Assembly (NCBI GenBank): GCA_050015675.1
Contig: JBEKAY010000014.1
Span: 5,604 to 69,603, forward strand
Source: Bacteroidota bacterium
Lineage (GTDB): Bacteria > Bacteroidota > Ignavibacteria > UBA10030
Length of the DNA stretch: 64,000 bases
Reading direction: 5' to 3'
Below are positions 47,601 through 62,661 of this stretch, one piece after another. The notes beneath the pieces are model-generated. The model was not told where the DNA came from. It made no database searches and saw only the letters and a program-made list of their open reading frames with translations. The translations under genes and the position numbers were made by a program. Position 1 is the stretch's first letter. The number at the start of each line of letters is the position of its first letter.

Positions 47601-47841
47601 TATACCTTTTTGGCTCTATCCTTTGGAAAATGGTGCATTCATCGAACGTTATGTACCAGCATTTCCTCTAAGCCGTGAATCAGAAAAAATTTTGGATTTA
47701 AAGCGATCTCTGGCTGTCTACAGAATGGTGTTTGGCCAATCACGTCAGCAGGATCTTGTTGATCTTCTTTTAAATCGTTTGCCAAACGTAAACGGAAAAG
47801 AACTAGTTGATCTATTAAGAATAGACTTGAGTCCATCTTGA
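44602..47841 (+). CDS. SNF2/DEAD-like SF2 helicase
   Basis: ADEVGLGKTLVA, LIILDEFQRFKH, MLSATPYKMY, LATTSVGQEGLDFH and LEQREGRVHRYKG. 4-nt overlaps on both sides. Confidence 0.85.
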   Translation: MKNKHNRPDIEKVLSTLKDFQLETVDYVFRRMYKDEDYTRRFLIADEVGLGKTLVARGVIAKAIDHLWDKVRRIDIVYICSNADIARQNINRLNITDTDECEIASRITLLPIQYSSLKENAINLVSFTPGTSFDQKSNLGVRLERALLYWMLKDAWNITGKGPLNVLQGNVRNYKRFRKEVYQFKHEYEIDKNIKKEFARVLNSPEQNQLKERFEKICCDFRNPRAVVPYTEREERNDVIGNLRALLARTCLQHLEPDLIILDEFQRFKHLLDTTTEAGQLAHKLFDYSDEHSEARVIMLSATPYKMYTLSAMEETENHYEDFLNTYQFLTNNDAKKGASFDGQLLDYREKLLTFNTENVSPIVQAKNLIETALKKVMVRTERLAITENRNGMLVEKPSEGFSVEAGDILSYVAVEKIAKALEENDVLEYWKSAPYLFNFMDDYSVKQKLKDALKDRVLRNRVVKLFSQNPVLKLLPEEIKNYKKIDPQNARLRSLLNDVSSSGVWKLLWIPPSLPYYQLGETFQTVSEKGFTKRLVFSAWKLVPKVIATLVSYEVERLISLGFEESSLNTKDVRDKRGQLLRFARTSGRLTGMPVVGLIYPAMVLASECDPLKYYKQYASQANSPSLEGVLSWVIGQIKNLLEKLAPGNKSGGQVDERWYWAAPILFDLQQNKKTDAKQWLCNDNLAAVWSGGLDNNDEQSAWADHVDEVKKLVHEYDHNQMPLGRMPNDLPTVLAKIALASPGVCALRAMSRSMDEAIAMRQLEVKNASASTAWSFLTLFNSYEATSLIRSIDKREPYWERVLDYSMNGCLQSVLDEFFHMLLESEGLSNKPIEVIAKGIAEAVHSAITLRTARLYVDDISDIQGSTLERIENFGRARFALRFDNEDSDSSTEPTRADQVRDAFNSPFWPFVLATTSVGQEGLDFHPYCHAVVHWNLPSNPVDLEQREGRVHRYKGHAVRKNIAVKFGDEVLRKNVNDIWNSLFQLAKDQRPKGKSDLIPFWLYPLENGAFIERYVPAFPLSRESEKILDLKRSLAVYRMVFGQSRQQDLVDLLLNRLPNVNGKELVDLLRIDLSPS

Positions 47842-49319
47842 TGAAATCTCATCCCTTTCTTTCCAAATCCAAATATCTTTCCGGACTCCAGTGCTATAAG
47901 CTCCTCTGGCATTATTATAATGCGAAAGAAGAGATAGCGGAAGTAGATGTTGCTACTCAGGCTATTTTCGATCAGGGGCATTTGGTAGGTGAATATGCTA
48001 AAAAACTCTTTCCAATCGGTATCGAAGTTGCTGAAGGCGTTGTCGATTTTGGAAAAGTCATTGAACAATCCCAGCAGTTAATCTCAAAGCGCCTTCCTCT
48101 TTTTGAAGCAGCATTTCAGTACAAAAACGGTTTCGCTCGAGCAGATATTCTTAATCCAGTTGGGAAAGATTCCTGGGATATTGTCGAAGTAAAAAGCTCA
48201 ACAGAAGTGAAAGATATCAATGTGCACGATGTTACTCTTCAGCGCTATGTCTATGAAGGGGCTGGTTTAAGAATTAGAAAATGTTGGATCTACTGCATTA
48301 ACAACCAGTACATACGGAAAGGAGATATTGAACCAGATAAATTTTTTTCAAAGAAAGAAGTAACAAAAGAAGTTGATAAATTGCTGCCGAGTGTAGAAAA
48401 CAAATTGCGAAAGATGGTGGACATTATCCAACTTGCAAAATATCCTGATATAAACATAGGTCCACAATGCAGTGATCCATTTGAATGCCCTCTCATTGAG
48501 AACTGTTGGAGTTTTCTGCCAAAGCATAATGTCTTCACTCTGACAAGAATAGGGAAAAAAGGATTCAAACTTCTTGAAGAAGGTATATCTAATATAAAGG
48601 ATATACCAAAAAATTATCGCCTTACTGATAAGCAAATGATTCAAGCCGAGGCGATCCATTCTAGAAAACCAGCTATATATAAACAAAATATCCAGAACTT
48701 TCTAAAGAAATTGAAATATCCACTTTACTTTCTCGATTTTGAGACGTTCATGACTGCTATTCCCGTGTATGACGATGTACGGCCTTATCAATCTATTCCA
48801 TTCCAGTATTCCCTCCATATATTAAAAGCTCAAGACGAAAAGCCAGAACATCATTCATTCCTTGCAGATGGAAAGAAAGATCCTCGGCCGGAAATACTAA
48901 AGCTCCTCAAGAAACTTCTCGGAAATTCAGGTTCTATAATTGCATACAATGCCGGTTTCGAAAAAGGTAAACTAGCTGATGCTAGTGCAGCATTCTCTGA
49001 GTATAGGGATTGGTTTGAAAATATTCAAAATAGAATTGTCGATCTCCTGTCTCCATTCAGATCGTTTGACTATTATCACCCTGAACAAATGGGCACTGCA
49101 TCGATCAAAGCAGTCTTACCGGCCTTAACTGGCAAGAGTTATGAAGGAATGGAAATAGCAGAAGGAGGAACCGCAAGTATTGAATATCTTCGAGTTACAT
49201 TCAATGATGTTACTGAAAAAGATCGACAACATGTCCGAGAACAATTGGAAAAGTACTGCTCGCTTGATACACTCGCTATGGTCTGGATTGTCGAAAAGTT
49301 AAACAAATTGGTTAAATAG
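47838..49319 (+). CDS. DUF2779 protein: N-terminal Cas4/RecB-like PD-(D/E)xK nuclease plus C-terminal DEDD-like exonuclease fold
   Basis: LSKSKYLSGLQCYKLLW, RADIL...WDIVEVKSS, the Cys cluster QCSDPFECPLIENCW, then YFLDFETF...IPFQYSLH...IIAYNAGFE. Confidence 0.7.
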   Translation: MMKSHPFLSKSKYLSGLQCYKLLWHYYNAKEEIAEVDVATQAIFDQGHLVGEYAKKLFPIGIEVAEGVVDFGKVIEQSQQLISKRLPLFEAAFQYKNGFARADILNPVGKDSWDIVEVKSSTEVKDINVHDVTLQRYVYEGAGLRIRKCWIYCINNQYIRKGDIEPDKFFSKKEVTKEVDKLLPSVENKLRKMVDIIQLAKYPDINIGPQCSDPFECPLIENCWSFLPKHNVFTLTRIGKKGFKLLEEGISNIKDIPKNYRLTDKQMIQAEAIHSRKPAIYKQNIQNFLKKLKYPLYFLDFETFMTAIPVYDDVRPYQSIPFQYSLHILKAQDEKPEHHSFLADGKKDPRPEILKLLKKLLGNSGSIIAYNAGFEKGKLADASAAFSEYRDWFENIQNRIVDLLSPFRSFDYYHPEQMGTASIKAVLPALTGKSYEGMEIAEGGTASIEYLRVTFNDVTEKDRQHVREQLEKYCSLDTLAMVWIVEKLNKLVK

Positions 49320-50014
49320 GAAATAGATTTGTGCCTGATTCGTTCGTGTGCGGTTCAGTGCGGATACATTTGGTATTAGAATATATAGTGAGCCTGTCGA
49401 ACTATTGAACCGCTTCCTTCACCGCAATACTCACTCACAAGCACTTTTTTGGTAATTGGCACACTCCCGTTGACACGGTCGTAAGTGCCGGTTGCTCATC
49501 ACGCGGCACATCCCCGCCCTTAATTGTTTTTGATAGTTTTTCTTGCAAATAAGGGACGTGGAAGTGCCTTTTCAAAAGCAGAAAAATCAAATCGAAGATT
49601 CTTCCAACCTCTTGAATCATGACCGCTGAAGTTGAAATATACACTTGATAAATCATAGCCCTCAGTCAAGGGCAAGTCGCTTCTTCCTTCGGTCGTCGCT
49701 TTAAATCGTGAACGCTCGCAATCATTTCGCTCCACTCATTCGTAAACTCATTCCGCTTCGCTCAATCATTGCTCGCTAAAATATTTTGGTTCCCCCTCCG
49801 TGAATGAAGATTGTTGCACAAACTTCATTCTTTTAAGGGGAACTATCCGGTGACAAACTCCACGCCGTCATTTCACTCCGTCATGTAGTTTGACAACTGC
49901 TTTTCAAGCAGTTTCACCGGCGTTCCCCCAAAATATTTTTCACGACCCTTGACTTCGGGCTTACAGCAAAAGAAACGATCTCTATCAGCGGTCATGATTT
50001 TTTTTCATGAACCA

Positions 50015-50620
50015 ATGGAGGTCGTTGTGTCACAAAATTCAATCAATTCACAATTCCAATCGTATTCCAACACCCTATATGCAGCAGCTTCCAGAATGCT
50101 GGATAAACGCAATCCACTGTATGAAGACAAAGTTCAAGACCTTGTCATACTTGCGTATGAAGAATTCAAACGGAAAGCAGATCAAGGTACAATTATGAGC
50201 ATAGCACTTCTCATTCACTTTATGAAGTTGCGAAAGCCGGAAGTACAGCTGGAAATGAGAGGAGATTCACGCACACCTAAAAAAGATGTATTCAACAAAC
50301 GAAATTACTACGAAGGTAAATTAGAATTGTATTCTATCGACAATCCCTTGAATATCGAATCAAGTGATACATTTGCCGAATCAATAAAAGATGACAACAA
50401 CCTTGAGGAAGAAATATCGTTTCGTTTAGAATATCAGGAACGGCTTGCATCGCTACACACCAACGAACAAACCATCCTGCAAATGAAAATGAATGGTTAT
50501 CAAGATTATGAAATTGCACAGATCATGTGCATTCAATCAAGCACTGTCAGAAGCACAATTCAAAATATTGCATCGAAGATGCTGGAACGAAAAACCGTTC
50601 AATGTGAGCTTCAGTTGTAA
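50015..50620 (+). CDS. Sigma-70/ECF-like or LuxR-type HTH regulator of a mobile-element module
   Basis: C-terminal region-4-like HTH EQTILQMKMNGYQDYEIAQIMCIQSSTVRSTIQNIASKM. The start is uncertain (ORF track gives 49949; ATG at 50015 follows GGAGG-free AT-rich sequence). Confidence 0.55.
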   Translation: MEVVVSQNSINSQFQSYSNTLYAAASRMLDKRNPLYEDKVQDLVILAYEEFKRKADQGTIMSIALLIHFMKLRKPEVQLEMRGDSRTPKKDVFNKRNYYEGKLELYSIDNPLNIESSDTFAESIKDDNNLEEEISFRLEYQERLASLHTNEQTILQMKMNGYQDYEIAQIMCIQSSTVRSTIQNIASKMLERKTVQCELQL

Positions 50621-50646
50621 CCCGCCTCAATATCCCATCCCTCAAA

Positions 50647-50680
50647 AGTCCCACCCTAAAAAGGTGGGACTTTTCTTTTG
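50647..50680 (+). terminator. Rho-independent terminator
   Basis: AGTCCCACC-CTAAAAA-GGTGGGACT followed by TTTTCTTTT. Confidence 0.65.
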
Positions 50681-50753
50681 GTATTAAACGAATGTAAATC
50701 ACATGCCCGCACTTTGATGCGGAAGAAGTAACACAACATAAAGGAGTTTTATC

Positions 50754-51404
50754 ATGAGTTATCAAAAAGAGTTTTTACAAATACAGGAAGGTCGAATTGC
50801 AGATGTTACTTTCTTGTTTCCTACCGGATTGAAAAAGGAAGGTAATTTCGGACCGTATTTTCTGTATACGGTCAAACACGAGGGAAAGGAAAAATTCCTC
50901 AAAGTCACAGAGCGACTTGAAAAAGAGTTGCGAAAGTTGAACATCAACACGAAACAAGCCTACAGCTTGTTCAAAGAAACCATTCACCCTCCCAAAAGCG
51001 AGCCTTATACGCTTTTCAGAATTGTGGAAAACAAAAATCCACAGCCCGCACCTGAGCCAAAGGCTCATGCGTCTCTGGTGCAAAGCCCAGTACCGCACCA
51101 ACCAGCGGCAGTCCAGCCGCAAACGGTAAAGGTTCAAGATGTCAATTTCACTGGAGATAAGCAGATCATGCACCAATCCATGCTTGATGCAGTGGATATC
51201 ACAAAAGCCATCGGTGGGATTGACTGGAGAAACACAGACATTGAGAAAATTGGTGTTTCGTTGTTTCTCTCACGTACCGGGCAGCTTACCACCGAACAAG
51301 TTCTTTCAAACGGTAACGGCAAAAAACCGCGAAAGGTGAAGGAAACCCCAAAGGCAGAACCGTCGCGCGAGCTTGTTCCCGCTGATGCAGTACCGTCCAA
51401 TTGA
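50754..51404 (+). CDS. Hypothetical protein with a Pro/Gln-rich linker
   Basis: Long ORF with RBS AAAGGAG upstream. No family recognised. Confidence 0.5.
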   Translation: MSYQKEFLQIQEGRIADVTFLFPTGLKKEGNFGPYFLYTVKHEGKEKFLKVTERLEKELRKLNINTKQAYSLFKETIHPPKSEPYTLFRIVENKNPQPAPEPKAHASLVQSPVPHQPAAVQPQTVKVQDVNFTGDKQIMHQSMLDAVDITKAIGGIDWRNTDIEKIGVSLFLSRTGQLTTEQVLSNGNGKKPRKVKETPKAEPSRELVPADAVPSN

Positions 51405-51447
51405 AACGGTAAGCACGACGATCTGCCGTTCTAATTTAAAATGTCAC

Positions 51448-51487
51448 TGGCTCGCTTGCAATAACAGGCGAGTCATTTCTTTAATTC
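51448..51487 (+). terminator. Probable terminator hairpin
   Basis: TGGCTCGC-N12-GCGAGTCA (one G-U pair) followed by TTTCTTTAATT. Confidence 0.4.
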
Positions 51488-51511
51488 AACAACTGGTAAG
51501 GAATCAATACT

Positions 51512-52015
51512 ATGAACGATACACTCTATGAAATCACTCGGGAACTTGTTCTTCTTGAAAACTATGAAGAATCACAAGAGCAAAACGGAGAGGATAGACT
51601 TGAGCTTTTCCGGCAAGCTCTCGACAATCTCAATATGAAGTTTCTCGACAAGGTCACGAACATTGTTAAGTTCATCAAGAATCTTGAATATTTCCGTGAT
51701 GCAGTAGCAGCCGAGGCAAAACGTTTGAGCGATCGGAAACGATCTTTCGACAATCGTATCGATTGGCTAAAAAATTATGTCAAATCATGTATGGAGGCAA
51801 CGCAAAGTGAGAAAATCAAATATTCCTTATTCACAATTTCAGTGGGAAAAAGTCAACCGTCCGTTGAAGTCCTTGACATTGAAAAGGTTGATGCTCAATT
51901 CATCAAAACTAAGAAGGAAGTGGACAAGACAAAAATTCTTGAACAGGTGAAAGCCACCGGAATCATTCCCGATGGTGTCGACATCAATTATGGAACGCAT
52001 CTTATCATTCGCTAA
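51512..52015 (+). CDS. Siphovirus Gp157-family protein
   Basis: The overall pattern LYEIT.EL..L........, coiled coil, KRLSDRKRSFDNRIDWLKNYV...ME, YSLFTISVGKSQPSVEV and a C-terminal ..G.HLIIR matches the Gp157 family (PF05565) as I recall it. Confidence 0.6.
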   Translation: MNDTLYEITRELVLLENYEESQEQNGEDRLELFRQALDNLNMKFLDKVTNIVKFIKNLEYFRDAVAAEAKRLSDRKRSFDNRIDWLKNYVKSCMEATQSEKIKYSLFTISVGKSQPSVEVLDIEKVDAQFIKTKKEVDKTKILEQVKATGIIPDGVDINYGTHLIIR

Positions 52016-52026
52016 TCTAACTTTAA

Positions 52027-52058
52027 AAGGCATTCCAAAATACGGAATGCCTTTTTTG
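52027..52058 (+). terminator. Rho-independent terminator
   Basis: AAGGCATTCC-AAAATAC-GGAATGCCTT followed by TTTTGTTT. Confidence 0.7.
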
Positions 52059-52155
52059 TTTCCATTCCGTCAATTCCCCGATTCATTTTCAGGTTTTCCT
52101 CTTTTGGTATAAAAGGTTTGAAAGAAATCTCTACCAATAAAAAGGTATAGCAACA

Positions 52156-55100
52156 ATGGAAATGAAACGCTCTCGTGTCACCGATGAATTGCTCAACGGG
52201 CAATCTGAAAATATATTCACGTCAAAGAATTCCCTTCAAAAGGGATTGCAACAATATTTCACACCCACACATATTGCACAGTTCGCCAGCGAAGTCATTG
52301 AAGCAGACAACAACGCTGTCATAGTTGATTTGACCGCAGGAACTGGAAATCTTCTCAAGCCTTATGCAGAGCAGAACGATTCCGCACTTTGTTTAGGAAT
52401 TGAACTTGACAAGTTCAATATCCCTACACATACGGAGAATCTGAAAGTTGCCAACGCCGATCTTTCAAAGGTATATCCCTATTTGAAAGCCGTTGACTTT
52501 AAAGCTGACATCATAGCATTAAACCCGCCATTCTCTCTTTTTTGGGAATTGCCGGAATTGACCGGAAATCCTGACAAGAAAATAGAAAGCCAGAAAGCAA
52601 CTATTCTCATTGGCTACGAATTACTTTCCACGTTAGGAGCAGGATATTTTATAGCATCATGTTCGACATTCGAGAAAACGTTGAATACCGACGATGCAAT
52701 CATGGAAAGAGTCTTTGCAACGATTCATATGCAAAATCTTTTCCTGCCGTATTCAAATGTCGAATCCGTTCTCTGTTTCTTCTCCAATGATGTCACAGAA
52801 AAACGCATCAAGCAATATACAAGCTCTTTTGATTTCAATGTACCCAACATCGATACAGTTCTGAAAACAGAGAAAGAACAGCTTCATTGGTTCATGGATT
52901 CTAACCGTATTTACATCATTACACACAATGAAGAGGATGAAAAGAAAGAGAAATCTGATAGATTCAAAGCCGCACTTGCCGAGTATAAACGCCAGCAATC
53001 CAAGAAAGCGCAATCTTTCAATATCGAAATCAGGAACGGTAAGTTTTCCGTTTCGCTTTCCAACTATCAGTATTATGTCATCAATACCAAGCTTTCAGAG
53101 GAAGAACAGTCACTTATCAATGAAATGAAGGTAGTAGCGCTTTCCTACTTTGCATTCAACACGCAGGCAAGAAAGCTTCTTACAAAGGTCATAGAGCAAG
53201 ACAAGCTTTTGACCATAAGCCCGAATGCAAAGCAAGCCATCGAAAAGGCGGTTCAGAAAGCTGACTTCACCTTAACACCATTCTATTCCTTGAAGCCACA
53301 ACAACGACTTGCACACTTGGAAAACATCGACCAGATCAAATGTATCAAAGACTTGAATCTGAAAAAGAAGTCATTCAAGGCAGGAAAATTCTACCCGATA
53401 AAAGTTACAACAACCATTGCAACGGATTACTACGAAAGGATGAAATACAGCAAGGAAAGCGAACAAGACAAAAAAACCGAAATGGTCAAGGTATCCAAGA
53501 ATTTGAGCATCGAAATAGATGAGCACACATTCACGGAATCAAAGAAAGATATTGAAGCCGTCATTCAGCATTTCGAGTTACCAAACCCGCAGGATGTCCG
53601 GTTGAAGAATCAAGCTTTGTATGCAAAGCTCAAAAAGAGAGTTGAAGGAAATGAGTTCACTGGATATACATTCAAACAATTCCAGGTTGAAGATTTAAGC
53701 CGACTTGCGATGAAAGAATCTGCAGTACTAAGTTGGGAACAAGGCTTAGGCAAAACCAGAGGAGCGCTTGCATGGTCGAAGTTACGTAATTCCCGCAAGA
53801 CGTTGATTGTAGTACCGCAGGACTTGAAAAAACAATGGATTGCAGAGGCGAAAGCTTTAGGAATTGACATCGAAGAGATTAAAACCTATTCCGATGCAAA
53901 AAGATGTTCAACACAAAAGTACAATAATCCAAAATGGTTCATTATACATTATGAACTATTGAAGGGAACACGTCAACACGATCAGTACAAGTTCCATCAT
54001 GTCGATTCACAAAAGAAGTATTGCCCGAACTGTAAATCTATCAAGGCATGGAACGGCTTTGTTTGTTCAGATTGTGAATTCAAGAGTAACATTGATGAAA
54101 CCAATTGCCCCAATTGTGGTAGTACTCGAAATGAAGGTTGGAACGGAAAGACGTGCAAGCAATGTTCATTCACACTCTTTGAATTAAGAGTCAAAGGTAT
54201 TTATTCCATCGTGAAGAAAGCTTTTGACACGATCATCGTTGATGAAGGAGTGAAAATCAAATCGAAGGATTCCTTGCAGGGAATCGCAGTTCGTTCGCTT
54301 CATGCAAAGAATAGGTTGCTCTTAAGCGGAAGCCCTATCAAGGGATGGATTACAGACGCATTCTGGCTTTTGCATTGGACACTTGGCAACGCAAGCGCAC
54401 GGTTTCCTTATCATTACAAAGGAGGAACGGAGAAGTTCCTGGATGATTTCGGAGTCTTTGAATATACCGCAGAAGAATTTCGCAAATCCCTAAGCAAAGG
54501 CAAACGGAAAATGTTGCCGGAAATCTCCAATCTTTCTTTGCTCTGGAAACTCTTTGCCCCATCGATTATTCGGAGGAAGAAAGTTGAGACCGGAGAGAAC
54601 CTTGTTGATAAACACATTCACAAGATTAAGTTGAATTTCACACAAGATCAGAAGCGTGTTTATGATTGGTGGATTGATAACTTTTCCGCATGGTTTGAAT
54701 CGACACACGATTCCAAAATCAGCGGAACTCAAATCGAATATATGAAAGCGATCTTAGGACAACTTTGGAAACTACGTTTGAGCACGACCGTTCCTGCAAG
54801 CACACTTCTTATGAAATCCGGTGAAGGAGAGAAGGGAATCAGTAATTTCACAGAAAAGACTTTGTTCGTTGCTCGAAAGGTGAAAGAGATAATCGATGCA
54901 CAAGAACAGGTTGTCATCTTTACGGCGCTTCAAGATTATGGAGAGTTCCTACAGGAATTATTTCTTGAAGCGCAGATCGGTTCACGGCTTGTCAATGGCA
55001 ATGTCAACCCCCGCAAACGTTCCGAAGTGATTGCAGCATTCAAACAACGAGAGTTTCCGATTCTTATTGCAGGAACAGAAGCCGTAAACTTAGGACACAA

Positions 55101-55533
55101 CCTTGATAATGCGAATCATATAATCATGTGCGACTATATTTGGGAACATAGCACTTCCCGCCAAGCCATTGATCGGGTTCACAGGTTAACAAGCACAAAG
55201 GATGTCAATGTCTATTTGCTCTATATCGAAAATTCGATTGATGAAAAACAATTGAAACTCATTGAGAACAAAGGGAAGTCATCCGACCTTGCCCTCGATG
55301 GAGAATTGATCGATCAGGATGAAAATGAGATCGATTTCCTGAAAATTGCTAAAGAAATATTGAGACAGCATGACTTTTCACGGAATCATACAGTTCCAGA
55401 ACAATTAATTGAAGATCAGGTGAGAACAATTTTCAACATGTCTATTGATGAAAAGTCAGAAGATCGGCAGGTTGAATCAAAAGAAGGTTGCTGTATTCTT
55501 GAAATAGAACAATTGAGTCTCTTTGCAGCTTAG
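52156..55533 (+). CDS. N6-adenine methyltransferase fused to SNF2 helicase with zinc-ribbon insert (phage P1 DarB-like anti-restriction architecture)
   Basis: MTase motifs YFTPTHIA, VDLTAGTGNLL and ALNPPF. Helicase motifs WEQGLGKT, IIVDEGVKIK, LLLSGSPIKG, IAGTEAVNLGHNL and QAIDRVHRLTS. Cys4 clusters CPNCKS..CSDC and CPNCGS..CKQC. Confidence 0.8.
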   Translation: MEMKRSRVTDELLNGQSENIFTSKNSLQKGLQQYFTPTHIAQFASEVIEADNNAVIVDLTAGTGNLLKPYAEQNDSALCLGIELDKFNIPTHTENLKVANADLSKVYPYLKAVDFKADIIALNPPFSLFWELPELTGNPDKKIESQKATILIGYELLSTLGAGYFIASCSTFEKTLNTDDAIMERVFATIHMQNLFLPYSNVESVLCFFSNDVTEKRIKQYTSSFDFNVPNIDTVLKTEKEQLHWFMDSNRIYIITHNEEDEKKEKSDRFKAALAEYKRQQSKKAQSFNIEIRNGKFSVSLSNYQYYVINTKLSEEEQSLINEMKVVALSYFAFNTQARKLLTKVIEQDKLLTISPNAKQAIEKAVQKADFTLTPFYSLKPQQRLAHLENIDQIKCIKDLNLKKKSFKAGKFYPIKVTTTIATDYYERMKYSKESEQDKKTEMVKVSKNLSIEIDEHTFTESKKDIEAVIQHFELPNPQDVRLKNQALYAKLKKRVEGNEFTGYTFKQFQVEDLSRLAMKESAVLSWEQGLGKTRGALAWSKLRNSRKTLIVVPQDLKKQWIAEAKALGIDIEEIKTYSDAKRCSTQKYNNPKWFIIHYELLKGTRQHDQYKFHHVDSQKKYCPNCKSIKAWNGFVCSDCEFKSNIDETNCPNCGSTRNEGWNGKTCKQCSFTLFELRVKGIYSIVKKAFDTIIVDEGVKIKSKDSLQGIAVRSLHAKNRLLLSGSPIKGWITDAFWLLHWTLGNASARFPYHYKGGTEKFLDDFGVFEYTAEEFRKSLSKGKRKMLPEISNLSLLWKLFAPSIIRRKKVETGENLVDKHIHKIKLNFTQDQKRVYDWWIDNFSAWFESTHDSKISGTQIEYMKAILGQLWKLRLSTTVPASTLLMKSGEGEKGISNFTEKTLFVARKVKEIIDAQEQVVIFTALQDYGEFLQELFLEAQIGSRLVNGNVNPRKRSEVIAAFKQREFPILIAGTEAVNLGHNLDNANHIIMCDYIWEHSTSRQAIDRVHRLTSTKDVNVYLLYIENSIDEKQLKLIENKGKSSDLALDGELIDQDENEIDFLKIAKEILRQHDFSRNHTVPEQLIEDQVRTIFNMSIDEKSEDRQVESKEGCCILEIEQLSLFAA

Positions 55534-55542
55534 CAAAGAAAA

Positions 55543-55572
55543 GGCAAGTCCGTCAATTCAGACGGGCTTGCC
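55543..55572 (+). terminator. Possible terminator hairpin after the methylase-helicase gene
   Basis: GGCAAGTCCGTC-AATTCA-GACGGGCTTGCC. The T-run is displaced by 8 nt, so this is a weaker call. Confidence 0.35.
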
Positions 55573-55750
55573 CGCCGGTGTTTTGGCGCGCTCGCCTCAT
55601 TCCTTCACGTGTCAATCCTTCCGATACATATTCACACCCATTGCCACATTTCGTCATTCGGCTCGCCAAAAGAAAAATAAATCAATATTGTGCTTCGCTC
55701 TAAAAAAATATTTGGTATAAGAACAGCACAAAAAGGAAGACGAGACTAAG

Positions 55751-55966
55751 ATGATTTCAATGGAACCGATTCTGAAAAATAGTAAGCGAGGTGACAGGGT
55801 TCTTCTCAGAATTGCCGACGAGCTTCATTTCGGCGTTGTTGTCTATGTTTCCCGATACTGTCCTTTTTCTAACCGGATTCTTCGAGATGGTGCAATTATT
55901 GGAACAGAAGTTCCTGGTTTACCAAAACATCAGCGGATCTATTTCTTCGAACCGTTTGAACCTTAG
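55751..55966 (+). CDS. Small hypothetical protein
   Basis: 71-aa ORF preceded by AAAGGAAG. No family recognised. Confidence 0.35.
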   Translation: MISMEPILKNSKRGDRVLLRIADELHFGVVVYVSRYCPFSNRILRDGAIIGTEVPGLPKHQRIYFFEPFEP

Positions 55967-56154
55967 CTTTCCTCGATTTTCCTCTGTTATAGCGTTCGTC
56001 CGTGGGTCTATACAATTTACAGCCCCGTTCTCGCACCGCAAGCCTTTCATCCCGCATAGCGGGAATTCAACCACTCGCTTGTGCAGCTCTGCTCCTAGCT
56101 CACACCGTGCAAATGATGCGCCTTATCAGTCACAACATTTGCAGCAACGGTGAT

Positions 56155-56935
56155 TCGTTCCGGTGCTCGCTTCCGCGCTCGGGCTCTGTTCGCTTCGCTC
56201 ACGACGGGCATTGCGTTGCTGTGCCTGCGGGGCTGTGTCAGCACTATCGTTTTTTCTGTTCTCACGGCTTTGTTGGTCGTGGGGCGCCGGCAGGCTGCTT
56301 CGGCTTGGGCTTGTCGGCGTGGGCAGTTGCTCGGCAGTTCTCGCCTACATAGGTGTTACTATGTTTTCGTCTTTCTCTTCCGTCGGCTTTTGCGGGTCGC
56401 GTTCGCTTCCTGCGTCTGCACAGCCGCTTGTCGCTTCCGTTGTCTCGTCTGTTCTCTCTGGGTCTTCTGCCCGCCTTGTCGTTGGCTGTTCTGTGGGGGC
56501 TGATGCTCTCGTTCTTTCTTCCGTTCCGTCAGCTTCGTTGTCTCGTGTCTCTGTCTTTGCAGCTTTCGGGTTCAGCGGCCGTGGTGCATGTTCGCTTTCG
56601 GCAGTTCCACTTGTTGCAGCTGCAGGTCGTGGTGGTGCATTTGTCAACTGGTGGTCAGGTGGTCGTCTCAGTGTTCCGCTTCGTCTTCGTCTCGCCAAGC
56701 GTTCGCTTGCTCTTGTTCAGTTTCTTGCGCGTCGTCATTCAGCGCTTGTCTGTTTTCTTGCCTCTCCAAAGTCTCGTGGTTCGTTGCTTGCTTGCCGTCT
56801 CGCAGCGCGTTTCGGTGTCACTGTGTTCGTCTTCTGTGTCGGTTTTTCTCCCTCTCGTTTGCCGCGTCTTGGTCGTGGTTCGTGGTCACTCGTTCAGGTT
56901 GCAGGTAGTTCAGCTTGTCAGTGGTCTCCCAAACC
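56155..56935 (+). other. Adenine-depleted tract (about 6 percent A on the + strand by hand count)
   Basis: I count 47 A in 56161-56930 (770 nt), and none in 56821-56887. The next 60 nt (56941-57000) contain 21 A. There are no stop codons in any forward frame, and reverse frames are largely open. Confidence 0.9.
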
Positions 56936-57437
56936 ATTGAAGAAGCGAGTGAAGGAATTCTATGAATCAATCACTTACAGCAAATACGACTTTCGCCGTC
57001 GTAAGAACGTGAGAAGAGTTCGTGAAGAATTCAAAAACGTTTTCGTAGTCGGTCTATTACTCTTTACGGTACTTGTTGCAATCACATTTAACTGTTGTAT
57101 GCCCATGCAATCACACCAATTATACCAACCACAGGTATCACATCAACAACAGAAATTACAACCGACTAAAAATATCAAGCAATACAGTGCAAGCGAACAA
57201 GAACTGCTGTTGCAGTTTGACGATGATACCGTATCAATGAAATGCTTGCAGTGGATTAATAACACTCCGTCAAAGCAACTTCGTTCAACTTTACGGAAAG
57301 CCAAAATCTATAACAATCGAATAGATACACTACTTTCAAATCGTCCATACACATCATGGACTGAAGTGTTTGACCTACCCAAAATTGGTATAAAAACTAT
57401 AGAAAAACTTATTACAACATGGAAATGTGTAAAATGA
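56361..57437 (+). CDS. Chimeric-composition protein: A-free-encoded N-terminal domain (possibly DprA/SLOG-like Rossmannoid), TM helix, and ComEA-like helix-hairpin-helix domain
   Basis: The frame is continuous with the 500-nt AT-rich ORF that stays open to 57437. ATG 56361 is preceded by AGGTG (an alternative GTG start lies at 56163). The frame shows a G-rich codon position 1 and T-rich position 3. C-terminal region: VVGLLLFTVLVAITF (TM) and INNTPSKQL...FDLPKIGIKTIEKL (HhH). Confidence 0.45.
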   Translation: MFSSFSSVGFCGSRSLPASAQPLVASVVSSVLSGSSARLVVGCSVGADALVLSSVPSASLSRVSVFAAFGFSGRGACSLSAVPLVAAAGRGGAFVNWWSGGRLSVPLRLRLAKRSLALVQFLARRHSALVCFLASPKSRGSLLACRLAARFGVTVFVFCVGFSPSRLPRLGRGSWSLVQVAGSSACQWSPKPLKKRVKEFYESITYSKYDFRRRKNVRRVREEFKNVFVVGLLLFTVLVAITFNCCMPMQSHQLYQPQVSHQQQKLQPTKNIKQYSASEQELLLQFDDDTVSMKCLQWINNTPSKQLRSTLRKAKIYNNRIDTLLSNRPYTSWTEVFDLPKIGIKTIEKLITTWKCVK

Positions 57438-57625
57438 TTACAGCAGAATTTACACAAGAGGAAGTTCAATCTCTCATTCAATCGCTCGAATCAGAGCGTG
57501 ACCAATATCTTAAGGAGTATGGCTCAAACAGGTACAGCTTCGTTCGTGAAATCGCGGAACGGGTAGTTGAGAAGAATAATCTACTTATTCAGAAACTGGA
57601 ATCACTAATATTCAAGGTAGGGTAG
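57434..57625 (+). CDS. Small hypothetical helical protein
   Basis: ATGA overlap with the preceding stop. 63 aa. Confidence 0.4.
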   Translation: MITAEFTQEEVQSLIQSLESERDQYLKEYGSNRYSFVREIAERVVEKNNLLIQKLESLIFKVG

Positions 57626-57627
57626 AT

Positions 57628-60600
57628 TTATTTATTCTTATATGTAATAACATTTTCTCTAAACCAGTATGCTTCTGATGAACCTAAATCAATCATGTTG
57701 TCCAAAATCCAGATGTAATCACTAATTAATTGTTTACTATTCTTAATTTTTAAAATATGGTTATAAAAGAGTCTTTTAATTAATCTCTCACCCGATGACG
57801 AAACAAGATTTATTATTTCACTAGGATTTGCTTTCAGAATATTTACTATCAAACTAATTCCATCTGGAAGAAATGACTTTTCTCCAACAGTTGAGAAGAC
57901 ATTAATTATATATTTAGAATTGCTTTGTCCAAATTCTTGTATCAATTTTATGTAAAAATCCTTCATCATTTCTAATGCTTTCCAATGAGATGCTTCTTGT
58001 TTCCATTCTACATCAAGAAAGAGGATAGATGCAAAGTATGATTTTCCGCTTGTCTTTACAACCTCATAAAAATAATTCCATATATTTAAAAAGTTCTCTA
58101 TAGATTTGTTAATCAAAATATTGTCTTTTGAATTAGCTATTATTTCGTCGAGCTTATAAATTGTTCGCTCTAATGTCTTTGAAACAAAATCATAAAGATC
58201 ATGTCGGTCGTGTGATTCAATATCATATTCTATTTGATATATTGGTTTTATTAAGAAGTCGATTATTGTTTTTGATAGTTTTATGTCCGATATAATTAAT
58301 AGTTCGGCGAAGTATTGTTCTAAATCGAGCCTACTTTCAATATGAATTTCTCTTTTCTGCTTCTTTCTATCATACCCATAATCTTCTTCTTTTTTTAAAT
58401 CATCGATTACAACCGGAATCAACTTATTTATAAAATTGAAATATTCAATGTCATCGATATAGTATGGTGTAACAGCTAAAGCTCTTGTTAATATATAGCA
58501 TTCATACGATTCAAAACTGATATTATCGATATTTAAATCTATATCTTTTGTTGATGAGATAAAGTTGAAGAAATCATTCTCTTTTTTATTATGAGCTTCA
58601 ATTTCTTTTTTATTGGGCAAATAATGAATAATCGGATTGGCTTTTCTAAATTCAGCATATACTATTAGTCCTTTCCAGATCCTTTTGGCCTCACTTGGAA
58701 TGGACCTAAAAAACGTATTTCTAACATATTCTAATATATAATCGACCTCATGATCATTAAATGGAGCTATTAACAAGTTTATTATCATTCCGATGATACT
58801 GTTTTTATCTTCTTCGGAATCTAATTCCTGATAGACCAAATGTATTGATTTTATAGCGGTTTCCTTCTCCATAATATTATAGGAAACATTAAAGTTGTAA
58901 TCTCTTTCAAATGTATTCCGGAGAATCACAAAATTAGTATCAATAATAGTTTTTAGACACCATTCTTTTTCCTCTGAGCTTAATTTATCTGGATAATTTC
59001 TAAGGCCCAAAACAGCTAAAGATACAGGCCTATCATATAGGTTGTTTCGACTATTTGGTCTCGAATAATAGATGAAGCATTCTTTCCAAAAATCATAGGT
59101 TATATCTTCTTTTCCATCATGTGCTTTCCAAATTTTGTTTGAGTAATTTAGGGAAGTATTTTGCGTTTCTATTTCATCCTTGTTTGAATTAAGAAATTCA
59201 GTAACCTCTTCATCGTATTTTGGCTTAATTGGGAATCCGCCTAGTTGCTTATCGTACTCTCCAACTTCATGATTGCGAACATCTATTTCTGTTAATATTT
59301 TTTTCCAGACAACATCCTCCTCAGAAATCCGTTCTTTTAGTCTATCAAAAACTTGATGAATTTCCTTGTTTAATACTCTAACATTGAATTGATAATTTGT
59401 AATAAAATCACATAACCCCCTAGAATACATTCTCCTATGCGGCAATTGATTCAACCTGTGTCTTTCTTTTTGAGCGAATGAGATTTCAAAATCCATTGGT
59501 GATAATGCCGAAGATTCTTGGAGACTCCGTTGGATATCCCATAAATAAAACTCCTTTACTGTTAATAATGGTAATAGTTCTTTCCCAACTTCATCAGGAT
59601 GTGCAATTGCTACGCCGCAAAGTAATCCACAAATTGTCACATTATTACTGTTTTTCAATAAATAGTCGAATGCCTGTTGAAGGATTCTTTTACTTGAATC
59701 GGTCTTTATGCTTGCTATTTCTAAAAGATATTTCTCAAGGCTCATAAGAATACATTCTAAAGCATCATGAGTTACACTCAATCCTCTGTAAGCTGCCCAA
59801 AGCTCCCAAGCTGCCCATAGTGTCCTTGTAGATCCGTCATTTAATTCGATTTCGACTTTATCAATTTGATGTTTGTATTCACCTTTTGCACTTACATAAA
59901 AATCTATCGAATAATTTAGAAATTCTATAATGAATCTTAGTCCAATATGCGGATGAGTAATGAGAAGGTTGTAAATTGGTGTTTTATATACACCACCAGG
60001 AGAAAATGATTGCCTGTCTTCAATACCCCAACATTCTTCGCTCCTTAATACATCCTTACGAAAATATATATTCTCATTGTTCCCTTTAGATTCCTCAGGT
60101 ATTTTTAATTTCCATTCCTTCCAGGCGACCATTACAATTAATTCCGGCATTTCTTTGGCGAGTTCACGTGTATACAAACCAGAAAGGCATATTTTAATAA
60201 CATTTTCATAAAACGATACTAACTTCCGATTCTTTCTTTCTTCCTTTTCTTTGAAACTTCTTTCTATGAGATGCGTGATTTCTGATTTTGATACTCTAGC
60301 GAGATTGAATAAAAGAGAAATTAGTTTGCGATTTATTTTTCTAGTATTATCTTGCTGCCAGAATGTATCTCCTGATTCGATTTGATTTATAAAATGGATA
60401 GTTATTTTCTTTATCACTTGTAACTCGTTATCATAAACATTCGATTGAAAGACTAGTCGATATTCCCAATCTAACAGCAAGTTCGCTATCGATAATCTGT
60501 ACTTATTTAGATGTTGAATGTGCTTTTCGATAAACACCAATATTTCTGTCCATCCAGACCCAATGGGTATAAGTATTGATAAACTAGTGTTTCCCTTGCA

Positions 60601-62661
60601 CGCTGTTCGAATAATATGTATACACCGATTTAGAAACTCGCCTTCATTCTCCAAGAGTGTTGATTGGAAATCACTAAAAAAAGATGCGCTCGTATCAGAT
60701 TTAAAAATCGCGATTAATATTTCATCTGCCCAATATTTATCAATGGACTTGTCTTGTAGAGTTGACAAAATTAATTTGTTAATGCTCTCATTATAATCCA
60801 CTAAATTATCTTCAATCCACAATCTAAAAGCTCTTCTTATTGCAGGTTCGTTGCCTAAATTATTAAATAAATCTTTAGGTTTGGAGAAATTGTCAAGCTT
60901 GGCTTGTACATATTTTATTAATGCCCAATCTTCAAGAATATCATGCGTTGGAGAAAACTTATACTCTCCTTTTTCTCGAATAATTACTTGATCTTTTTCT
61001 AACGCCTCAATTCCTTCTTCAAGATTGTCGTCAGGTTCGACAAAAAGTTTCATTTCTTTTGCTCGTTTTATGGCAATGTTTGAAAATGCTTTGCTTCGTT
61101 TTCTCGCCAATCCCCCCTTTTTTGTTGTGATGTCTTCAATAATATTGTTCCATAATTTCTTCTTAAAATCAGAAATGGAAACATTGGATAAATCTTCTGT
61201 TTCTCTTGATAGAGATATCAAGGCAAAATCAAGATACTTTGGACTTCTTAATAGGGTCCGGAGTTTATGGTTATTGAGAACCGGTACTAATTGTTGATAT
61301 CTTTCAGAAACCATTCTCAATTCATCATCATTTAATTCTGGAAGGTTTATTATGCTAAGTTTGATATTTTCGATCCCAAACTTTTGAATAATTAGATCAA
61401 CTGCATATTTTCTTGAAGTTGCAATGATATTTATATCCGAATAATCTGACAATAAAGATAAAAGTTGTTTAAATGCATTATCAGGATCACCCTCTAGTAA
61501 TTTCTCCAAACTATCAATTACAATCAGTTTATCAGGAATAAGCGATACGCACGAAATGATTTCTTGAATTGGTTCATGGATGCTAAGCTTTGCAAATACA
61601 TTAGAAAGATGTTGTTCGTTTAATTGATCTGCTCTAAAAATTATATTAAATGCCTGAAAATAATCTTTTTCTAAAATCTCCTTCACGATTGCAGATTTAC
61701 CTACTCCGGGATTGCCTGTTACGATCGTCAATCTATTATCGTTTATTGAATTCAATATATCTGAATGAATCTCTGTCCTTTGTAGGTGGAGGTCACCAAT
61801 TGTACTCTTTAAGGGTTTTATTATTATCGCACTATCATATCTTAGCTTTTGAATTGATTTAGAAAATGGTGTTATTTTTAGGATGTCAAAATGTTTGAAG
61901 ATATCGTGCTTAATTATACTTTCAAATGTAATGCTTCCTCCGTCTTTATTGTGCTTGGCAGCAATTGAATATATACTATCCCAAATATCCTTTTCACTGG
62001 ACGATGAAGCATTGCTTTTTGAAAGCTTTATTAGATTTAAGAAGTAAACTTCATCGATACTACCTTCATTTAGAAAATCATATTCTAAAAGATCAATGCA
62101 TCTAAGGAATTGCCAAAGATCCTTCTGCGTTATTGATTTGCCGTTATTAATTTGGTTTAAAACGTTCCAAAAAATATTTGCATATTCTTTTTTCTCTTTT
62201 ATTCTGTTAACTTCTTTGAAATAATCGAGTTCATTTGCATGTGTTTTTGCCCAATTAAGTAATGGTTTGATGTGGTCTCTTTCGTTTTTTGTAAGCCCAC
62301 TTTTTATAATAACCAGCCTATCCTTCTCTTTATTGAAGATCGAATCATTATTAAAATCCTTCCAAAACGCTTCAATTACTTTTCTAAAAAGAGTATTTGT
62401 TTTAGCATCAGAGAACGTAATATTGTGTTTAATTTGTGCTAAAAGTCTAAAATCGCCTTGATCAGATTTGGCAATTGCCAACAGATCATCTGTCTGATAT
62501 CCTCTGCTTGTAGTTTGAAAAGCAATCTCTATCAATTGTGCATTTACTATACAAGGTATATTGCCTTTTACAATCAAAGTAGTTAAGAACGCACTTTGAA
62601 CATATTGTTCAAAATTAGTTCCACCGCCACCTTTTTGAAAGACGCTTCCTTTTTCTGACAT
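57628..62661 (-). CDS. Giant STAND NTPase with N-terminal PD-(D/E)xK nuclease-like domain and long helical-repeat C-terminus (Avs-like antiviral STAND)
   Basis: N-terminal GGGGTNFEQYVQSAFL...QTDDLLAIAK...RLLAQIKH (D...QxK nuclease pattern). Walker A IVTGNPGVGKSAIV and Walker B KLIVIDSLEKL. More than 1100 aa of helical repeats follow. Confidence 0.75.
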   Translation of the reverse strand: MSEKGSVFQKGGGGTNFEQYVQSAFLTTLIVKGNIPCIVNAQLIEIAFQTTSRGYQTDDLLAIAKSDQGDFRLLAQIKHNITFSDAKTNTLFRKVIEAFWKDFNNDSIFNKEKDRLVIIKSGLTKNERDHIKPLLNWAKTHANELDYFKEVNRIKEKKEYANIFWNVLNQINNGKSITQKDLWQFLRCIDLLEYDFLNEGSIDEVYFLNLIKLSKSNASSSSEKDIWDSIYSIAAKHNKDGGSITFESIIKHDIFKHFDILKITPFSKSIQKLRYDSAIIIKPLKSTIGDLHLQRTEIHSDILNSINDNRLTIVTGNPGVGKSAIVKEILEKDYFQAFNIIFRADQLNEQHLSNVFAKLSIHEPIQEIISCVSLIPDKLIVIDSLEKLLEGDPDNAFKQLLSLLSDYSDINIIATSRKYAVDLIIQKFGIENIKLSIINLPELNDDELRMVSERYQQLVPVLNNHKLRTLLRSPKYLDFALISLSRETEDLSNVSISDFKKKLWNNIIEDITTKKGGLARKRSKAFSNIAIKRAKEMKLFVEPDDNLEEGIEALEKDQVIIREKGEYKFSPTHDILEDWALIKYVQAKLDNFSKPKDLFNNLGNEPAIRRAFRLWIEDNLVDYNESINKLILSTLQDKSIDKYWADEILIAIFKSDTSASFFSDFQSTLLENEGEFLNRCIHIIRTACKGNTSLSILIPIGSGWTEILVFIEKHIQHLNKYRLSIANLLLDWEYRLVFQSNVYDNELQVIKKITIHFINQIESGDTFWQQDNTRKINRKLISLLFNLARVSKSEITHLIERSFKEKEERKNRKLVSFYENVIKICLSGLYTRELAKEMPELIVMVAWKEWKLKIPEESKGNNENIYFRKDVLRSEECWGIEDRQSFSPGGVYKTPIYNLLITHPHIGLRFIIEFLNYSIDFYVSAKGEYKHQIDKVEIELNDGSTRTLWAAWELWAAYRGLSVTHDALECILMSLEKYLLEIASIKTDSSKRILQQAFDYLLKNSNNVTICGLLCGVAIAHPDEVGKELLPLLTVKEFYLWDIQRSLQESSALSPMDFEISFAQKERHRLNQLPHRRMYSRGLCDFITNYQFNVRVLNKEIHQVFDRLKERISEEDVVWKKILTEIDVRNHEVGEYDKQLGGFPIKPKYDEEVTEFLNSNKDEIETQNTSLNYSNKIWKAHDGKEDITYDFWKECFIYYSRPNSRNNLYDRPVSLAVLGLRNYPDKLSSEEKEWCLKTIIDTNFVILRNTFERDYNFNVSYNIMEKETAIKSIHLVYQELDSEEDKNSIIGMIINLLIAPFNDHEVDYILEYVRNTFFRSIPSEAKRIWKGLIVYAEFRKANPIIHYLPNKKEIEAHNKKENDFFNFISSTKDIDLNIDNISFESYECYILTRALAVTPYYIDDIEYFNFINKLIPVVIDDLKKEEDYGYDRKKQKREIHIESRLDLEQYFAELLIISDIKLSKTIIDFLIKPIYQIEYDIESHDRHDLYDFVSKTLERTIYKLDEIIANSKDNILINKSIENFLNIWNYFYEVVKTSGKSYFASILFLDVEWKQEASHWKALEMMKDFYIKLIQEFGQSNSKYIINVFSTVGEKSFLPDGISLIVNILKANPSEIINLVSSSGERLIKRLFYNHILKIKNSKQLISDYIWILDNMIDLGSSEAYWFRENVITYKNK

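Follow-up and report, generated by a model that had tools for sequence, protein, structure and literature searches.

A DprA-like gene family of mobile elements written almost without adenine in its coding strand

How can a gene come to be written almost without adenine, and what keeps adenine out of it? The question is raised by a 64,000-nt segment from a Bacteroidota bacterium (Ignavibacteria, UBA10030; GenBank assembly GCA_050015675.1, contig JBEKAY010000014.1, forward-strand positions 5,604 to 69,603), which we call the window and in whose coordinates positions are given unless another locus is named. At 56155-56935 it carries a tract with 50 A in 781 nt (6.4%), compared with 32.4% A in the whole 64 kb. 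An earlier note on this DNA, made from the letters alone, had counted 47 A in the 770 nt at 56161-56930 (6.1%), none across the 67 nt at 56821-56887 and 21 in the 60 nt just past the tract (56941-57000), and had called the window A-rich; a recount reproduced all of this exactly. The tract consists of two parts, a non-coding leader of about 206 nt and the coding region of a DprA-like protein, and it represents a gene family written almost without adenine in the coding strand, for which we found no bacterial precedent in the literature searched.

The depletion is local and concerns one base on one strand. In 300-nt sliding windows, in which the mean A content is 32.4% (sd 4.8%), the lowest value is 4.3% inside the tract and 20.3% elsewhere, and sliding-window composition revealed no T-, G- or C-poor stretch of comparable depth in the 64 kb. 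In 500-nt bins, the AT skew reaches -0.51 and -0.53 in the two that cover the tract and otherwise lies between +0.29 and -0.20. Adenine is replaced about equally by T, G and C; the GC content of the tract reaches 57%, and C is raised (28% versus 18%). The forward strand is open in all three frames over the tract, which explains the overlapping forward ORFs stacked at 56002-56940, as the earlier note had proposed and an ORF check confirmed, while the reverse strand has neither ATG, GTG or TTG nor any stop codon there. No Rfam family matches within 55400-57700, and the predicted RNA structure of the tract (minimum free energy z = -0.75) shows nothing beyond composition.

The open frames also affect annotation. 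Gene callers applied to these tracts give wrong starts, long artificial N-terminal extensions and spurious overlapping and antisense ORFs (P0064, P0067 and P0099 among the homologous proteins; an antisense example is 4728-5426 on the minus strand against 4918-5595 on the plus strand of homologue locus L027). The antisense ORFs and false extensions arise because all six frames are open, and database entries of the A-poor DprA-like family often have wrong starts. The window ORF is a case in point: it had been read as running from a GTG at 56163 to 57437, and whereas the long ORF is real, its actual start is the ATG at 56361, preceded by AGGTG. Close homologues all begin at an ATG matching 56361, with MFSSFSSVGFCGSRSLP.

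The A-poor coding region (56361-56935, plus strand) is recognized by its homologues, an AlphaFold2 model, Foldseek matches, weak Pfam DprA matches in relatives, sequence motifs and codon statistics. Of its 192 residues, about 94% are accounted for by F, L, S, C, W, P, R, V, A and G, the ten amino acids having A-free codons. The frequency of A at codon positions 1, 2 and 3 is 4.2, 5.2 and 9.4%, respectively; G makes up 36% of position 1 and T 50% of position 3. Thirty one codons contain A: 17 are GCA, TCA or CCA, and the others encode Gln (four), Lys (three), Ser as AGY (three) and Asp, Asn, His and Thr (one each). These figures bear out what had been said of the frame, namely that position 1 is G-rich, position 3 is T-rich and the residual A sits in GCA, TCA and CCA or in isolated polar codons. 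Serine is preferentially encoded by TCN and arginine by CGN rather than by AGY and AGR, and leucine is never encoded by TTA or CTA. The domain contains one Asp, no Glu, three Lys and 17 Arg; the single Asp, which belongs to a G-A-D motif, retains its GAT codon. At residue 192 the composition jumps to 35-39% A while the reading frame continues uninterrupted to 57437. Four-fold sites show the same step, A rising from 11% in the tract to 43% further 3' in the ORF. The 3' end of the tract thus falls inside an ORF, where the DprA-like domain ends, and the A-rich continuation (56936-57437, plus strand) encodes a linker, a transmembrane (TM) helix and a helical domain.

The leader (56155-56360, plus strand; 7% A), delimited by composition and nucleotide alignment, is conserved at the nucleotide level and is as A-poor as the coding part (15 A in 209 nt). 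Single-base indels in the alignment of the window with homologue loci L001-L005 mean that it cannot be one conserved reading frame. In places it has diverged strongly without gaining A, and its few A are clustered in the ribosome-binding patch at 56346-56360. Over the tract as a whole, A survives at the invariant Asp of G-A-D, at a few Lys, Gln and Asn codons and in the ribosome-binding patch.

A scan of GTDB, with one genome per species, identified 17 homologue loci in Ignavibacteriota, Bacteroidota, Chlorobiaceae, Desulfobacterales, Rubrobacterales, Acidobacteria and Gammaproteobacteria. Adenine is avoided in at least seven phyla and in genomes of 30-70% GC: at most loci the gene with 20-660 nt upstream has 2.4-7.6% A, compared with 15-31% in the surrounding 20 kb, and the length of the tract varies from about 620 to 1815 nt. 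Six plasmids from PLSDB also carry the gene (Nitrosococcus oceani ATCC 19707, N. watsonii, N. halophilus, and Methylobacter, Methylocaldum and Methylomagnum strains), as do five IMG/VR contigs, in which A makes up 0.3-1.4% of the match (five A within 7255-8411 of L037, whose flanks have a positive AT skew, and three A within 7341-8501 of L040). In 143 new representatives listed by a profile search, a median of 91% of the residues come from the A-free alphabet, compared with 42-48% for the neighbouring genes of the window. The avoidance of adenine is a property of the gene family, independent of genome GC. Many unrelated loci with the same skew, which would speak against this, were not seen: the tract is the sole A-poor segment in the window and in each of the low- and mid-GC homologue loci. 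A DNA-level similarity search against phage and plasmid collections gave no match, nor did a protein-level search of the phage collection.

The composition of four of the IMG/VR contigs (L036, L038, L039 and L040) is itself unusual, the gene strand of the whole contig having about 39% C, 25% G, 20% A and 14% T; in them the A-free tract is a local reversal of an already unusual strand composition.

An assembly or sequencing artefact or a chimeric join, which the earlier note had listed among its hypotheses, has nothing but the sharpness of the change in composition in its favour. It is ruled out because the tract recurs in dozens of assemblies made independently, finished plasmids from cultured isolates among them. 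Its boundaries are shared by the 17 GTDB loci, the five IMG/VR contigs, many metagenome contigs and the six PLSDB plasmids, and both junctions are collinear with the homologues.

To distinguish selection from mutation, synonymous positions are informative. Among 100 four-fold sites at which the amino acid is conserved in six homologues, 84 vary, and the bases found there are A in 27 of 600 cases (4.5%), T in 52%, C in 26% and G in 18%. Synonymous sites thus turn over among T, C and G yet avoid A, which argues for an avoidance still in operation and exerted on the nucleic acid itself. Together with the homologues, the invariant motifs and the fold of the protein, this supports the claim that we are dealing with a translated gene purged of adenine. 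It also makes hardly credible the explanation that the protein itself was selected, a basic, hydrophobic domain without Lys, Asp and Glu escaping lysine-directed modification or proteolysis and the A-poverty being a by-product. The residue counts given above and a confident fold despite the reduced alphabet agree with such selection, but A is avoided at synonymous four-fold sites as well (4.5-11% versus 27-43% in neighbours), the non-coding leader is equally poor in A, the choice of serine, arginine and leucine codons follows the same rule, and the lost amino acids have in common only their A-containing codons.

The same sites bear on the possibility that the selected property is the openness of the frames, either for overlapping proteins or frameshift tolerance or for an antisense strand without starts, stops and promoters. 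The open forward frames, the reverse strand lacking ATG, GTG, TTG and stop codons, and the frequency with which gene callers extend or add ORFs could be cited in its favour. We nevertheless consider it very unlikely: variation at 84% of the four-fold sites of the DprA frame leaves little room for constraint on a second frame, the leader has 1-nt indels, and the avoidance of stop codons does not require the removal of A from the codons of Lys, Asn, Thr, Ile, Met, Asp, Glu, Gln, His and Tyr.

Composition alone cannot tell biased mutation from selection, and the roughly equal replacement of A by T, G and C is what A-to-N mutagenesis would give. Local mutational erosion of A without selection, by a ratchet like that of diversity-generating retroelements (DGRs), by another strand- or base-specific mutator or by damage to a strand that is often single-stranded, is nevertheless improbable on the following evidence. 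Among 28 window proteins and in the Pfam-annotated flanks of 14 homologue loci (3-10 kb per side), neither a reverse transcriptase nor Avd was found, and sensitive blastn together with a scan treating A as a wildcard found only chance matches to a DGR template repeat in the 64-kb window; a DGR ratchet, the first hypothesis of the earlier note, is therefore not supported. Adenine is the affected base in both cases, but the protein of the tract is conserved rather than hypervariable, and the tract has about five times the length of a typical variable region and is in part non-coding. Fused and unfused genes share the homologous residue at which the 3' boundary falls within the ORF, yet their tracts differ almost threefold in length, so that the tract follows the gene and not the distance from some starting point. 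The pattern recurs across phyla and across the whole range of GC content. Known single-strand damage (C to T, A to G) depletes C, which is here increased. Finally, copies outside the usual module of neighbouring genes described below regain A (L009 and L010, 16-17% A).

The latter two copies lie 16 kb apart on one Ignavibacteriota contig and, together with L006 and L007, form a group with weaker avoidance (12-17% A), whose proteins are richer in Lys, Asn, Asp, Glu, Ile and Thr. L009 lies among host-like genes and AbiE, with no Gp157 gene in its vicinity. These four may be decaying copies under relaxed constraint.

The residual A is unevenly distributed. It stands in CpA in 36 of 50 cases (72%) in the window and in 313 of 594 (about half) in the pooled homologue tracts, CpA being tolerated three to four times better than GpA or TpA; transitions at CpG would supply such A. 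The pattern fits a mutation-selection balance with a small cost per A. Derived A at four-fold sites is a singleton in seven cases and shared in three, the corresponding figures for G being 20 and 7 (few events). The most depleted A-containing dinucleotide is GA (observed/expected 0.14 in the window, 0.40 pooled; AC 0.47, GGA 0.48). In 12 tracts ACA occurs 12 times versus 8.1 expected from composition (ratio 1.49), and GANA, the complement of the TNTC motif at which DarT ADP-ribosylates thymidine in single-stranded DNA, occurs six times versus 8.2 expected (ratio 0.74, within one sd); T is nearly absent from the template strand as a whole. Taken together, the constant boundary, the synonymous sites and the distribution across phyla suggest that purifying selection on the nucleic acid is probably still at work in keeping A out.

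The protein encoded by the tract has 99 homologues by word-index search, and a profile search of 1.8 billion representatives found 1069 clusters at E<=1e-3 and 355 at E<=1e-30. The motifs G-S-R and G-C-x-x-G-A-D are invariant among the homologues. An AlphaFold2 model built with a 46-sequence alignment has a pLDDT (predicted local distance difference test) of about 97 over residues 1-190, and the top Foldseek matches in PDB are 5mll and 4ljk, that is, Helicobacter pylori DprA (probability 1.0, target-normalised TM 0.50). Pfam DprA (PF02481) matches 13 of 46 relatives, mostly weakly (best E=8e-6), while the window protein has no Pfam match at E<=0.01; the TIGR00732 score is 18.7-21.5 bits against a cut-off of 191, that is, below the curated threshold, and a sequence search of PDB with the domain profile gave no match. 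The domain is thus, by its model, a DprA-like Rossmann (SLOG) fold lying below the curated DprA family thresholds. Single-stranded-DNA binding and RecA loading, which the fold and the Gam-like and Sak4-like neighbours suggest by analogy, may be its function.

The C-terminal part (56936-57437) consists of a Lys-rich linker, one predicted TM helix (residues 221-245) and a helical domain (helices within 288-356), to which NCBIfam ComEA_MAG0490 is similar at E=0.01, below its cut-off. This part is conserved in frame in the homologous proteins P0002-P0032. The predicted TM helix would place the ComEA-like DNA-binding domain across the membrane from the DprA-like domain, an unusual architecture.

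Next to its composition, the second constant feature of the tract is structural: a long hairpin or inverted repeat lies directly upstream of it in every lineage examined closely. In the window, this is a 50-nt hairpin (56103-56152, minus strand) ending 2 nt ahead of the tract, which DNA folds and the homologue alignment mark as a candidate promoter or priming signal of the single-stranded-DNA type; its stem presumably contains a Bacteroidetes-type TTTG box, seen by inspection. A small stem-loop further upstream (CCCGC ATA GCGGG, 56051-56063) is present in all predicted folds and shows compensatory changes among homologues. The DNA fold of 55985-56160 has -32.3 kcal/mol on the minus strand (z -3.2, 0/200 shuffles) and -23.6 kcal/mol on the plus strand (z -1.6). 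In L001, the hairpin at the same aligned site has another sequence with the pairing kept, and its folds have -38.0 (z -4.4) and -26.2 kcal/mol (z -1.7) on the minus and plus strands, respectively. The Methylobacter plasmid (L023) has a hairpin at 4260-4441 with arms of about 58 nt, the 5' arm being A-rich and the 3' arm A-free and running into the tract (minus strand z -6.0; -46.2 kcal/mol on the minus versus -37.5 on the plus strand); the hairpin of a Nitrosococcus plasmid (L022, 7124-7301; z -5.7) has -65.2 versus -52.3 kcal/mol, and the IMG/VR contig L036 has a near-perfect stem-loop of about 190 nt at about 7720-7905 (z -8.4). In L002 (about 9760-9790), L031 and L033, an unrelated 10-bp hairpin, CCCGTCACGC TTT GCGTGTCGGG, occupies the site of the 50-nt hairpin; judging from these sequences, the structure there is replaced, not lost.

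The minus strand is usually the more stable one, by 5-10 kcal/mol in 120-nt windows and by 9-13 kcal/mol in folds of 176-221 nt. In a locus-wide control, this gap between the minus and the plus strand belongs to the top 0.1-2.5% of the locus in nine of 12 loci and to the top 6.5% in two more. Since G·T wobbles on the minus strand correspond to A·C mismatches on the plus strand, what would matter is not a fold of the mRNA but one of the template strand, in single-stranded DNA or possibly in an antisense RNA.

A further A-free gene is found on plasmids. Those of Nitrosococcus and Methylobacter have a tract of 1.0-1.4 kb, which holds an additional conserved ORF of about 120 amino acids (the ORF1 family), its stop touching or overlapping the start of the DprA-like gene (L022 7399-7764 in NC_007483; L023 4503-4876 in NZ_CP091426). 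This family has 70 homologues, all annotated as hypothetical, with the motif RVWVRPG..GSPVF.ACGLPVP..VKVALPxG and an invariant Lys in V-K-V-A-L-P-x-G, and is unrelated to the DprA-like protein; that two unrelated proteins are encoded without A in one tract is further evidence that the avoidance concerns the nucleic acid. Its AlphaFold2 model (pLDDT 84) gave no informative fold match, and no model in NCBIfam, PADLOC, PHROGs or Pfam covers either A-free protein family. In one frame the leader of the window reads ...CVAVPAGL..., resembling VKVALPAG, and ends with a stop 8 nt ahead of the ATG at 56361, and we therefore take the leader for a decayed ORF1: 56155-56360 is probably, on this sequence likeness, the relic of a second A-free gene.

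A mini-hairpin rich in GC and free of adenine, about 24 nt long (GGCTTGCCCGCCGGTGTTTTGGCG), was observed at 55565-55590, past the stop of the upstream methyltransferase-helicase gene. The same mini-hairpin forms the in-frame insertion 'GLPAGVLAG' within the A-free ORF of L001 (10544-10570), and related inserts, 'LPAGQ..GLP', occur in L005 (10502) and L006 (10526). By its sequence it looks like a small mobile palindromic element.

The tract lies within a conserved 8.3-kb module (49323-57610, where blastn synteny ends), all genes of which are on the plus strand. The first gene (49949-50620; Pfam GerE and Sigma70_r4_2, PHROG 'RNA polymerase sigma factor') encodes a LuxR/sigma-70 region-4-like regulator and is syntenic in L001-L005. 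It is followed by a gene for 216 amino acids without a family match, conserved by blastn in L001-L007 (50754-51404), and by a gene for a Sipho_Gp157/Mu Gam-like DNA-end protection protein (51512-52015; Pfam PF05565, E=3e-37; PHROG 253, 'Mu Gam-like end protection'). Gp157 is the most constant neighbour of the A-poor gene and is found near the homologues in L018, L019, L021, L023, L024, L026 and L030. A fusion of an N6-adenine methyltransferase and an SNF2 helicase (52156-55533; Pfam N6_Mtase, SNF2-rel_dom and Helicase_C) forms an optional cassette (52103-55757), absent in L001, L004 and L005, where Gp157 is followed almost directly by a small ORF. A single-strand-specific adenine methyltransferase has a role on plasmid leading regions (PMC7736820), and it is conceivable by analogy that the methyltransferase-helicase of the window acts single-strand-specifically in the same way. 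The small ORF upstream of the leader (55751-55966; 71 amino acids, no family match) is conserved by blastn and called in L018 and L032, and another small ORF of 68 amino acids, the last gene of the module (57419-57625), overlaps the stop of the A-poor gene and is called in L018-L020 and L029-L035.

Elsewhere, an integrase adjoins the gene in L021 and a Sak4-like AAA_24 ATPase in L034; in L019, L029 and L031 the module borders directly on host genes, so that the A-poor gene lies at an island's edge. On Nitrosococcus plasmid A, the A-free operon comes first in a long series of co-oriented genes, hicAB, DUF932 and Gp157 among them; hicAB is located directly downstream, and PemK/MazF and AbiEii are present on the same plasmid, as are AbiE and Fic in L025. 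The IMG/VR contig L037 is phage-like, with a tail-collar domain. These neighbours and carriers (islands, plasmids and phage-like contigs) place the gene in the establishment or recombination tool-kit of several kinds of mobile elements.

What could make adenine costly in such a gene? The best-fitting class of explanation is one that the earlier note had put forward as its second hypothesis, namely an early gene of a mobile element selected for an A-free message and a T-free template; the attacking agents it had named are unconfirmed, ACA is not depleted and the 3' half of the ORF is rich in A. The early gene may, more specifically, be read from a hairpin promoter. Masai and Arai are said to have described such a single-stranded-DNA promoter, Frpo/ssi, in the leading region of conjugative plasmids in 1997. 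A hairpin usually favoured on the template strand and an early operon for the handling of single-stranded DNA, as in Frpo/ssi, lead us to propose expression from a single strand. The operon would be transcribed from a Frpo/ssi-like promoter very early, while the element is wholly or partly single-stranded; the host RNA polymerase would copy the thymine-free template into adenine-free RNA; and the resulting protein would bind and protect single-stranded DNA and might load RecA. Through base-directed attack or interference, any T left in the exposed template strand, or any A in the transcript made early, would slightly lower fitness, so that selection would keep T out of the exposed template and hence A out of the message, at the price of a protein of about ten amino acids. 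By this analogy, the gene would be an early or establishment gene behind a hairpin promoter of the single-stranded-DNA type and kept A-free and T-free by selection, a reading which, with its single-strand stage, its promoter function and its cost, we hold tentatively and at somewhat less than an even chance. The broader proposition has about an even chance of being right: that there is, among the early genes of plasmids, integrative islands and phage-like elements, an unrecognised class of 'three-letter' genes, in which one nucleotide has been selected out of one strand over 0.6-1.8 kb behind a long hairpin. For the accompanying idea that the purge would allow expression of the gene, or survival of its template, where that base is a liability, we see the scales as level.

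Several observations weigh against expression from a single strand. The 3' third of the same ORF is A-rich and, in the subfamily of the window, conserved in frame; A thus persists in part of the mRNA and T in part of the template, and a rationale involving the whole transcript is incomplete. All six carrier plasmids are typed as non-mobilizable, and the available gene annotations of the loci and flanks contain no relaxase, oriT, rolling-circle Rep or type IV secretion system. Elements such as the phage-like carriers usually come into the cell in double-stranded form. The hairpins of L036 and L013 show no strand bias, that of L022 reverses its bias when RNA parameters are used, and a scan of the gene strand for a sigma-70 -35/-10 consensus found none in 4100-5600 of L023 or 6600-8500 of L022. 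In the homologue tracts, ACA, GANA/TNTC, AGA and AAA are not depleted beyond A itself. No A-free composition is described for the Frpo-driven genes of the F plasmid; the transcription of single-stranded DNA therefore does not in itself require one. Two physical reasons for the composition were tried and rejected, which adds to this list. A weak RNA:DNA hybrid, from which the message would come free of a single-stranded template, is contradicted by a hybrid of -1.46 kcal/mol per step in the tract, stronger than in 99% of the window because GC rises to 57%; as for an unstructured T-free template, the tract is only 2.3-2.6 sd less folded than its GC content predicts and is average in absolute terms.

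The main rival of single-strand expression is a purge at the level of RNA or translation, unrelated to single-stranded DNA: resistance to A-directed attack on RNA, to ATP depletion or to anticodon nucleases. Possible agents are A-specific endoribonucleases and toxins of the MazF, HicA, HigB and Csm6 types, GA-specific ADP-ribosylation of mRNA, and depleted or corrupted ATP; alternatively, the gene would be translated without tRNAs having U35 or U36, which anticodon nucleases usually attack (Lys, Tyr, Asn, Asp, His, Glu and Gln). Several facts suit this explanation. The avoidance of A extends over all three codon positions and the leader, the lost amino acids are, by the genetic code, exactly those read by tRNAs with U35 or U36, GA shows the strongest depletion both in the window and in the pooled tracts, and the carriers are rich in toxins and defence genes (HicAB, PemK/MazF, AbiEii, AbiE, Fic, Gabija, ABC-3C and Avs4). 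On the other hand, the 500-nt A-rich 3' part of the ORF would stay fully vulnerable; the leader is untranslated, so independence from tRNAs cannot account for its A-poverty; ACA is found in excess rather than specially avoided; the better tolerance of CpA than of GpA and TpA is also expected from CpG-to-CpA mutational input; and the conserved, template-biased hairpin is left unexplained. We regard a purge at the RNA level as unlikely on balance, though to be taken seriously.

If a whole nucleotide is indeed selected out of such genes, they reveal a strong and widespread pressure on single bases in the early transcripts or exposed templates of mobile elements. This pressure could be a base-directed immunity or a constraint of single-stranded expression, and the gene family would serve as a reporter for finding it. 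A by-product would be natural, well-folded proteins with an alphabet of 10-12 letters: thousands of natural Rossmann-fold domains are encoded with about ten amino acids, which bears on reduced-alphabet design and on early genetic codes. The feature is amenable to study in cultured strains, namely Nitrosococcus oceani ATCC 19707 (plasmid A, record 2832-4400) and Methylobacter sp. YRD-M1.

The module is flanked by variable defence genes on both sides, and the window is a dense defence island. Upstream are located a GT4-conflict/nSTAND1/FGE-sulfatase protein (14769-18299); a set comprising a PLD-SNF2 helicase, an Eco57I-like methyltransferase and a SEC-C/MauJ protein (24373-32233); an ABC-3C system (CTD7, DUF3732; 32372-36035); a Gabija-like pair of an OLD-TOPRIM ATPase and a UvrD helicase (36918-40717); and a DUF6361-PLD-helicase-DUF2779 set (41514-49319). 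Downstream, on the minus strand, is an Avs4 STAND NTPase (57628-62661; PADLOC E=2e-144).

The statement of the earlier note that no gene class of this kind has been described agrees with our search of open-access papers and bioRxiv, which found no description of a bacterial gene family lacking a nucleotide; only ALREX tracts turned up. The latter are the adenine-depleted signal-sequence regions of vertebrate secretory mRNAs (PMC3077370, PMC3635865). Like the bacterial tract, they are a strand-specific 5' feature of an mRNA acting at the RNA level; unlike it, they are about 60-90 nt long and moderately depleted, are linked to nuclear export and are partly explained by hydrophobic signal peptides.

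Another parallel, in arrangement, is Frpo/ssi, a type of hairpin promoter by which conjugative plasmids express early genes from the transferred strand (PMC11541004). In both cases a long imperfect hairpin stands directly upstream of early genes, the strand on which it usually folds better is the template, and the product would act on single-stranded DNA, by analogy with SSB and PsiB. In the A-poor loci, however, no -35/-10 consensus was found in the stem (L022 and L023) and no relaxase or oriT in the annotated flanks, and the plasmids are typed as non-mobilizable; the likeness is one of arrangement.

With DprA/Smf, the protein of the window shares the Rossmann-like fold, G-S-R, G-x-G-x-D and the segment S-x-G-S-L-x-A-x-x-x-A. 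It differs in lacking the SAM and winged-helix accessory domains, in the fusion of its subfamily to a TM helix and a ComEA-like domain, in being carried by mobile elements and in being built from about ten amino acids, whereas canonical dprA genes are not reported to avoid adenine.

The avoidance of targets, as in restriction-site avoidance and in ACA-less, MazF-resistant mRNAs, resembles the adenine-poor tract in that the target of an attacker is removed from the element's own sequence, with a graded cost per site. In the known cases a motif of 3-8 nt is removed, whereas here a whole nucleotide is avoided on one strand over 0.6-1.8 kb, with no preference for ACA.

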